Of a DNA stretch of 18,661 bases, positions 5,927 through 6,347 are shown piece by piece. This DNA is from a virus (Duplodnaviria; Heunggongvirae; Uroviricota; Caudoviricetes). The stretch lies in IMG/VR virus record IMGVR_UViG_2541047899_000006, positions 1 through 18,661 of that record, one strand, 5' to 3'. Made by a program: the position numbers and the translations under genes. Each line of letters begins with the position of its first letter. The first letter of the stretch is position 1. The notes beneath the pieces are model-generated. The model did no database searches, had not been told where the DNA came from, and saw only the letters and a program-made list of their open reading frames with translations.

Positions 5927-6255
5927 TGAGCGTGACAGAAATTGTTTTAAAAAAACCGGTGACAGCGCATAACGAAACGCTGCATGTGCTGGAGTTGCGT
6001 GAACCCACGTATGACGAAATCGAGGCCCTGGGTTTTCCTTTCATTATTTCCGGTGAGGGCAGTATTAAACTGGACAGCCAGGTGGTACTGAAATATATCC
6101 CGCTGCTGGCGGGGATCCCGCGTTCATCGGCGGCGCAGATGGCAAAACTGGATATTTTTAAGACCAGCATGCAGATCCTGCGTTTTTTTACCCAGTCGGA
6201 GACGGGAAGCACCTCCGGAAACGACTCTACAATGTTGCCTGGTTCTGGAAACTGA
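5926..6255 (+). CDS. Tail assembly chaperone, short (in-frame) product
   Basis: 109 aa, RBS GGGAGGA at 5911-5917, TAATG overlap with the tube gene. It lies between the tube and tape measure genes, the conserved position for a frameshifting chaperone pair (lambda G/GT, P2 E/E'). Confidence 0.7.
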   Translation: MSVTEIVLKKPVTAHNETLHVLELREPTYDEIEALGFPFIISGEGSIKLDSQVVLKYIPLLAGIPRSSAAQMAKLDIFKTSMQILRFFTQSETGSTSGNDSTMLPGSGN

Positions 6256-6347
6256 ATCCACTGGAGCTGCGACGGGTGGCTATTTCGCAGTTTACAGAAC
6301 TGGAAGCCGAGGCCGTCCGCATTAACGAGGAGATGAAGCATGGCTGA
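6183..6347 (+). CDS. -1 frameshift extension of the tail assembly chaperone (predicted fusion product 5926-6189 joined to 6189-6347, about 140 aa)
   Basis: Slippery heptamer T TTT TTT at 6183-6189 in the zero frame. The -1 frame is open from 6162 to the stop at 6345-6347 with no start codon of its own apart from an ATG four codons before its stop. It spans the otherwise non-coding gap 6256-6339 and ends just after the tape measure ATG. Predicted extension: YPVGDGKHLRKRLYNVAWFWKLNPLELRRVAISQFTELEAEAVRINEEMKHG. Confidence 0.55.
   Translation, partial: FFYPVGDGKHLRKRLYNVAWFWKLNPLELRRVAISQFTELEAEAVRINEEMKHG

Follow-up and report, generated by a model that had tools for sequence, protein, structure and literature searches.

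A probable programmed -1 ribosomal frameshift in the tail assembly chaperone gene of a phiP27-like prophage of Escherichia coli

The DNA analysed here (hereafter the window) is a stretch of 18,661 nucleotides, positions 1 to 18,661 of the IMG/VR virus record IMGVR_UViG_2541047899_000006, and its source element is a phiP27-like Escherichia coli prophage. It is 99.6% identical to the Stx2e-converting phage phiP27 over 5570-6700 and keeps the order of that phage's morphogenesis genes, namely head genes, sheath, tube, an open reading frame (ORF) of 109 amino acids (aa), a gap of 84 nucleotides (nt), tape measure, baseplate, and fibre genes. The 109-aa ORF, which sits between the tube and tape-measure genes in a contractile-tail module (Table 1), is by its sequence a member of the Pfam family PF10109 (Phage_TAC_7), matching it at 31.2 bits (E 2.3e-7, residues 6-75) against a curated gathering score of 25 bits. 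Pfam describes this family as "tail assembly chaperone proteins E, or 41 or 14" (P2 gpE / Mu gp41), and nearly all database homologues of the chaperone carry it; the ORF also matches phrog_166 'tail protein' (E 1e-27), and its RefSeq name is 'phage tail assembly protein'. On the sequence evidence presented below, we consider it probable (about 0.85) that this gene undergoes a programmed -1 ribosomal frameshift of the G/GT type (E/E+E' in phage P2) at a run of seven T residues (T7) at 6183-6189.

The zero frame reads CTG CGT TTT TTT ACC across this run, which bears out the proposal of a first-pass annotation, made from the letters of the window, that the T7 run forms a slippery heptamer in the phase of the chaperone ORF; in that phase it fits the pattern X_XXY_YYZ. 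The -1 frame has no stop between 6162 and its TGA at 6345-6347, so that, as the same annotation had claimed, it spans the gap at 6256-6339 and terminates just inside the tape-measure gene, 7 nt past the ATG at 6340. The counts given there for the two products were likewise confirmed: a long and a short form sharing 88 N-terminal residues, with a 52-aa extension that brings the predicted fusion product to 140 aa (88 + 52). For the two forms, the predicted tryptic peptides are FFYPVGDGK, which covers the junction of the long form, and FFTQSETGSTSGNDSTMLPGSGN, which belongs to the short form. The tail that the zero frame adds after the slip site differs between clades, from 3 to 21 codons, and the 84-nt gap beyond it is left uncovered in the annotation of phiP27 and in the RefSeq E. 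coli annotation. The last codons of the extension, N-E-E-M-K-H-G, are near-invariant, probably because they hold the Shine-Dalgarno sequence and ATG of the tape-measure gene, and this embedding suggests translational coupling.

Table 1. Features at and around the chaperone locus, in coordinates of the window
Feature	Positions	Strand	Basis or status
Sheath gene	4074-5570		
Tail tube protein gene	5570-5926	+	PF10618 Tail_tube, E 8.5e-34
Zero-frame tail assembly chaperone ORF, short product 109 aa, gpE/gpG analogue	5926-6255	+	PF10109, phrog_166
Small hairpin AUGCAG-AUC-CUGCGU (6 bp, 3-nt loop) abutting the T-run	6169-6183	+	Flagged as terminator-like
Slippery heptamer T_TTT_TTT: last base of codon 86 (CGT) and Phe codons 87 and 88	6183-6189	+	Phase read from the sequence
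-1 frame extension (E'/T analogue), 52 codons, YPVGDGKHLRKRLYNVAWFWKLNPLELRRVAISQFTELEAEAVRINEEMKHG, then TGA	6189-6347	+	Translation
Dual-frame overlap, zero-frame tail TQSETGSTSGNDSTMLPGSGN and stop versus start of the -1 extension	6190-6255	+	
Weak candidate downstream hairpin UCGGAG...CUCCGG, 6-nt spacer	6196-6218	+	Unsupported as a stimulator
Tape-measure ribosome-binding site GAGGAG (6327-6332) and ATG (6340-6342), inside the last extension codons	6327-6342	+	Read from the sequence
Tape measure protein gene, presumed chaperone client	6340-8289	+	PF10145 PhageMin_Tail, E 6e-44; phiP27 L47 'tail length tape measure protein'

The T7 motif by itself is no more than chance expectation. On both strands of the window TTTTTTT occurs 10 times, against 5.05 +/- 3.09 expected, and the chaperone ORF holds three more in-phase heptamers, at 5946, 5949, and 6030. 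The tube gene has an in-phase T_TTT_TTT of its own at 5593-5599 in codons 8-10, after which the -1 frame stops immediately, and the heptamer at 5949-5955 is an A_AAA_AAA in codons 8-10 of the chaperone gene. Used as internal controls, these two runs are lost in relatives through synonymous and non-synonymous changes and are probably due to chance, and each could still cause some abortive shifting; in phage SfIV, only 6030 among the other heptamer positions keeps an in-phase motif, and that of a different sequence. The site at 6183 stands above chance because of its position and its conservation rather than the motif itself.

To avoid circularity, relatives were sought with the N-terminal 88 residues only. 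The loci recovered in this way, 26 in GTDB species genomes and 80 in IMG/VR, together with 12 phage loci gave 74 distinct sequences. An in-phase T6 or T7 heptamer lies at the same codon, at the end of the N-terminal domain, in 72 of the 74, and in the same 72 the -1 frame runs on from there without a stop until it comes within a few bases of where the tape-measure gene begins. The hosts span more than 15 genera and include Escherichia, Shigella, Salmonella, Mixta, Buttiauxella, Pantoea, Erwinia, Leclercia, Mangrovibacter, Lonsdalea, Atlantibacter, Edwardsiella, Yersinia, Pseudomonas/Stutzerimonas, and Burkholderia, as well as a metagenome-assembled genome of the Rhodocyclaceae. Synonymous positions at the slip site are held fixed: codon 87 is TTT in 72/72, compared with 75 of 184 Phe codons (41%) elsewhere in the domain, and codon 86 always ends in T whatever the amino acid (CGT 32, GGT 22, AAT 11, AGT 5, CCT 2). 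Codon 88 is TTT in 60 relatives, TTC in 11, and TTG in 1.

The -1 extension is also conserved as a protein in the relatives, down to about 35% identity, and the motif Y/F-x-x-A-x-F/Y-W-K/R-x-N/D-P...A-x-R-I is kept from Escherichia to Burkholderia. When the predicted fusion was used as a tblastn query, two-piece matches in two frames were obtained in SfIV, ST64B, F1055, Yersinia YeP1-3, Pantoea AH07, Edwardsiella EPP-1, and Paraburkholderia IPK. The first-pass annotation had allowed that the extension might prove unconserved and that synonymous variation might break the T-run in close relatives; both points came out in favour of the frameshift, the extension being conserved and the T-run unbroken by synonymous variation in 72 of the 74 distinct relatives. 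A T_TTT_TTC heptamer and the -1 extension are kept as well in the record named Pseudomonas phage DVM-2008 (L014:989-1416), a 22.7-kb tail-gene cluster of P. fluorescens Q8r1-96 that is probably a phage-tail-like bacteriocin, so that the frameshift appears to have been retained there.

Selection was examined by comparing the locus pairwise with SfIV and computing the proportions of nonsynonymous (pN) and synonymous (pS) differences by the Nei-Gojobori method. In the gap (6256-6344), pN was 0.07 and pS 0.65 in the -1 frame, as against about 0.24 and about 0.12 in the other two phases, and in the -1 frame variation fell on 25 of 30 third positions, compared with 23 of 59 first and second positions. 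In the overlap (6190-6255), the corresponding values were 0.12 and 0.61 in the -1 frame and 0.24 and 0.17 in the zero frame. The pN/pS ratio is thus about 0.1-0.2 in the -1 frame and at least 1 in the other frames, a pattern indicating that the -1 frame is under purifying selection and the other frames are not; in the overlap, too, the -1 reading is the constrained one, because the ratio is low there and not in the zero frame.

These data bear directly on the idea that the locus has no function, the T7 run being a product of chance or of a sequencing indel and 6256-6339 a plain intergenic spacer. Such a reading would fit with T7 runs in the window being no rarer than chance predicts and with the homopolymer-length and indel variants of the chaperone gene that exist in databases. 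It is at odds with the recurrence of the same two-frame geometry in 72 of 74 independent distinct sequences and with the codon-position-specific variation in the -1 frame; moreover, nothing resembling a promoter or a terminator was flagged within 6256-6339, and an Rfam scan of 5900-6500 at E <= 1 returned no match. We regard this explanation as effectively refuted by the comparative data.

The same selection pattern, together with a survey of start codons in the 72 relatives, was brought to bear on the proposal that the -1 ORF is a small gene in its own right, translated from its own start at GTG 6276 after GGAG or at ATG 6333. The first-pass annotation had recognised a late ATG as the only start in this frame; the frame also contains a GTG (6276-6278) that follows a GGAG at a distance of 9 nt, so this part of the claim did not hold for the window, and the GTG is not conserved in relatives. 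Separate calling of the -1 ORF is also found in databases, since two PHROG families of 'unknown function' match the extension, phrog_32181 (E 6e-6) and phrog_11318, so that some phage annotations evidently treat it as a separate small protein. Against independent initiation stand the location of the most conserved block of the extension, LRKRLYNVAWFWKLNPLE, upstream of GTG 6276, and the purifying selection that acts on the -1 frame already in 6190-6255. Furthermore, ATG, GTG, and TTG are all absent from the -1 ORF in 13 of the 72 relatives; in most of the others the earliest start is 63 nt or more beyond the slip site, level with the conserved motif or after it, and start positions are unconserved among the relatives that have one. 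Because starts are absent or late in this way, independent initiation is excluded as a conserved expression route, and we rejected the proposal as very improbable for the window.

The closest known case, and a proven one, is that of phage P2, whose E+E' is annotated in NC_001895 as a joined coding sequence with a "-1 translational frameshift" at 19685, and whose -1 frameshift at TTTTTTG has been described as lacking any downstream structure (PMC3091744, citing Christie 2002 and Xu 2004). A profile built from ten of the fusion proteins aligned with P2 E+E' over 122 columns (probability 85%, E 6e-6), and this alignment puts the two slip sites opposite one another (FF/Y here, FL/V in P2). The N-terminal domain falls in PF10109 in both, the gene lies upstream of the tape measure in a contractile-tail module, and the slip occurs at the homologous codon on a T6-type heptamer (T_TTT_TTG in P2, T_TTT_TTT here). 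The two halves are similar in size (85 + 57 aa in P2, 88 + 52 aa here), the stop of the long form falls 7 nt past the tape-measure start in P2 as well (19857 for E+E' versus 19850 for T), and neither has a downstream stimulatory structure. The two differ in that P2 uses a tRNA-Leu on UUG, whereas here tRNA-Phe would occupy both sites with perfect re-pairing, in an overall identity of only about 16%, and in the zero-frame tail, which is 21 codons long here and 6 in P2. We claim homology to P2, as judged from these alignments, for the chaperone domain and the slip site. Direct support for a frameshift thus comes from the signal, its phase, its synonymous-site conservation, the purifying selection on the -1 frame, and the homology to the P2 gpE family with aligned slip sites; the arrangement that the first-pass annotation had likened to G/GT, between the tube and tape-measure genes, finds support in this conservation, selection, and family link.

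In phage lambda, gpG and gpGT are produced by a -1 shift at G_GGA_AAG (Levin 1993, Xu 2004/2013/2014, per PMC5009743), and in the model for that phage the two products bind the tape measure through their common domain, the long one binds the tube protein through its extension, and the ratio of the products is critical (PMC5009743). The present locus resembles lambda in having two chaperones with a common N-terminus and in the position of the gene between the major tail and tape-measure genes; a low-level shift and an important product ratio are features of lambda, and the roles proposed here are borrowed from it. Lambda differs in showing no detectable sequence similarity, in its non-contractile siphovirus tail, and in its heptamer and tRNAs.

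Phage Mu is like the window in that its gp41 belongs to PF10109 and in that the sheath, tube, and tape-measure genes adjoining the chaperone gene of the window are of the Mu type; the flanking tail genes of the window are indeed Mu/SfV-like and not P2-like. Across the end of Mu gp41 (L017:3553-4132, gp41 to gp42), stops close the -1 frame and leave only the +1/-2 frame open, at 3950-4117, which agrees with the -2 frameshift reported for Mu gp41 (PMC5009743) and contrasts with the plain -1 shift proposed here. A single Pfam family, PF10109, thus holds different shift directions.

That the shift is ribosomal, how efficient it is, and what each product does in assembly are what we infer from the observations above. 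Most ribosomes would read through the T-run and stop at the TGA at 6253-6255, yielding the 109-aa short chaperone. In a minority, tRNA-Phe would stand on UUU in both the P site (codon 87) and the A site (codon 88), and both tRNAs would slip back one base on U_UUU_UUU; since a single E. coli tRNA-Phe decodes both UUU and UUC, both would re-pair fully. Decoding would then resume at UAC 6189-6191 in the -1 frame and continue to the TGA at 6345-6347, giving a 140-aa protein that consists of the 88-residue chaperone domain and the conserved 52-residue extension, predicted to be helical. If the two forms act as lambda gpG/gpGT and P2 gpE/gpE+E' do, the domain common to both would coat the product of the next gene, the tape-measure protein, the extension would bring in subunits of the tail tube, and a fixed ratio of short to long form, set by the efficiency of the shift, would be needed for correct tail assembly.

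As a proxy for the fusion, we used an AlphaFold model of a natural in-frame fusion allele (protein P0001, 91% identical). In this model, the N-terminal domain is a beta-hairpin with helices at predicted local confidence (pLDDT) values of 79-93, the slip site falls at the end of the helix spanning residues 74-89, and the extension is helical with low confidence (pLDDT 43-51). The best fold matches of the model in BFVD were a 'Tape measure chaperone' (E 3.3e-4) and several entries named 'Tail assembly chaperone' with weak E-values; searches of the PDB by sequence and by fold gave no meaningful match to the chaperone. The extension had no match in Pfam or NCBIfam, and the extensions of two relatives gave only sub-threshold Pfam matches.

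Several observations weigh against a programmed ribosomal frameshift of the P2 type or narrow its reach. A stem-loop or pseudoknot suggested at 6195-6260 by the first-pass annotation drew no support from any of the approaches applied: single-sequence folding of 6183-6270 and of 6190-6230 gave nothing better than shuffled sequences did (z-scores of -0.95 and -0.76), RNAalifold on 13 relatives returned zero consensus pairs downstream of the slip site, and the best helix picked by hand, 6196-6201/6213-6218, was rejected as a stimulator, its central pair being broken in 9 of 13 relatives with a single covarying cell. No conserved upstream Shine-Dalgarno-like element was found among the relatives either. 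The slip signal is not universal, because a distant relative, the Paraburkholderia phage IPK (L010:1200-1320, PV588664, an UNVERIFIED record), encodes its Phe-Phe pair as TTC TTC and has no heptamer; its -1 frame opens only 7-9 nt before the chaperone stop, yet it still encodes the conserved extension (VFDLAHFWNVSP...RIAEK); another recoding site, an own start, or a sequence error in the record may account for this. With regard to the P2 link, the Pfam model PF06528 (Phage_P2_GpE) matched none of four divergent extensions, even at E <= 10, and a profile of the extension alone reached a collinear alignment with P2 E' at an hhalign probability of only 39%. The extension is for these reasons not filed under Phage_P2_GpE, and its likeness to P2 E' is treated as a functional analogy, homology being unproven.

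A downstream structure is not required, because P2 has none either. Heptamers of the form H_HH.U_UU.Y belong to the group that shifts -1 most efficiently in E. coli (Sharma et al. 2014, PMC4066793), and U_UU.U_UU.U and U_UU.U_UU.C give more than 0.1% shifting there without any stimulator (PMC4066793). As no conserved stimulator or Shine-Dalgarno-like element was found, the efficiency of the shift at the present site is not predictable.

A further point of the same kind is that RNA polymerase could add an extra U on the T7 run, so that messages with eight U residues would encode the same 140-aa fusion in a single frame, an outcome that sequence alone does not tell apart from a ribosomal shift. 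On this account, which we consider unlikely, the long product would arise partly or wholly by transcriptional slippage, assisted in the phiP27 lineage by the hairpin at 6169-6183; if true, the move of the phiP27 clade from T6C/T6G to T7 would mean that the mechanism of recoding has changed inside a single chaperone family. In the genes of E. coli, UUUUUUU is rarer than expected in each of the three frames, and transcriptional slippage is one possible cause (PMC4066793). The hairpin, which was flagged as terminator-like, stands directly before the T-run. Arrangements of a hairpin and a run are said to stimulate productive slippage, as Penno and colleagues reportedly described in 2015. The hairpin of the window has a minimum free energy (MFE) of -4.8 kcal/mol with an unremarkable z-score of -0.69 and is missing in many close relatives (for example L005, L020, L023, L073-L077, and L098, with MFE 0 to -1.5), on which ground we rejected it as a feature of the family. 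It is probably incidental, and it might modulate transcription or slippage in the phiP27-type lineage. Productive transcriptional slippage is known at runs of about 9 or more, and no relative has a run of T8 or longer: 11 distinct relatives, SfV and SfI among them, manage with T6 followed by C, and one with T6 followed by G as in P2. In addition, the run always lies in the X_XXY_YYZ phase, and the homologous event in P2 is described as translational. A ribosomal shift thus remains the reading we prefer.

Alleles in which the two frames are fused also occur. In a Shigella flexneri allele (L060:1740-1800, IMGVR_UViG_2529292715_000008), the T7 run is intact and an extra G downstream of it (CTCCGGGAAAC), which turns CTCCGG into CTCCGGG at the equivalent of about 6213-6218, fuses the zero frame with that of the extension and hard-wires the long form at 140-142 aa (proteins P0001, P0002, and P0005). 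Since P0005 was seen on 661 contigs, this allele is real and widespread, and it represents either a prophage in decay or a natural experiment on whether the ratio of short to long form matters. The other full-length proteins in the databases (P0006, P0007, P0011, P0017, and P0025) stem mostly from Logan assemblies, carry T5 or paired or multiple indels, and are probably homopolymer errors; such errors at a slip site can pass for fused genes in protein databases.

Farther downstream in the window, the tail-fibre region at 13300-18661 is mosaic with respect to phiP27, which covers only 32% of the region, at 90.7% identity. Within it, a fibre ORF of 1042 aa (14934-18062) is nearer to the fibres of the Actinobacillus phage vB_Apl-pPE4 and of Rac-SA53, and a 349-aa antisense ORF at 14912-15961 that overlaps it is probably spurious.

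The frameshift is annotated in none of the records examined, which were those of phiP27, SfV, SfI, SfIV, ST64B, Yersinia YeP2, Pantoea AH07, Edwardsiella EPP-1, a Pseudomonas tailocin cluster, and two of the 51 matching complete E. coli genomes. The exact 140-aa product was not among the protein clusters returned, the best match being 91% identical, and the searched literature yielded no description of a frameshift in phiP27, SfV, or ST64B; the 2004 study by Xu and colleagues may already list Mu-like or SfV-like prophages. The phenomenon itself is textbook, its closest case, P2, belongs to the same family, and current understanding of tail assembly and of frameshifting is unchanged by the present case. 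The comparative set supplies a clean, stimulator-free U_UUU_UUY signal that is invariant at synonymous sites across more than 15 genera, which makes it useful for training recoding predictors. The main value of the finding is practical and lies in the correction of annotation: the long chaperone, probably an essential tail-assembly protein, goes unannotated, and a stretch of 84-141 nt is at present mislabelled as an "intergenic gap".

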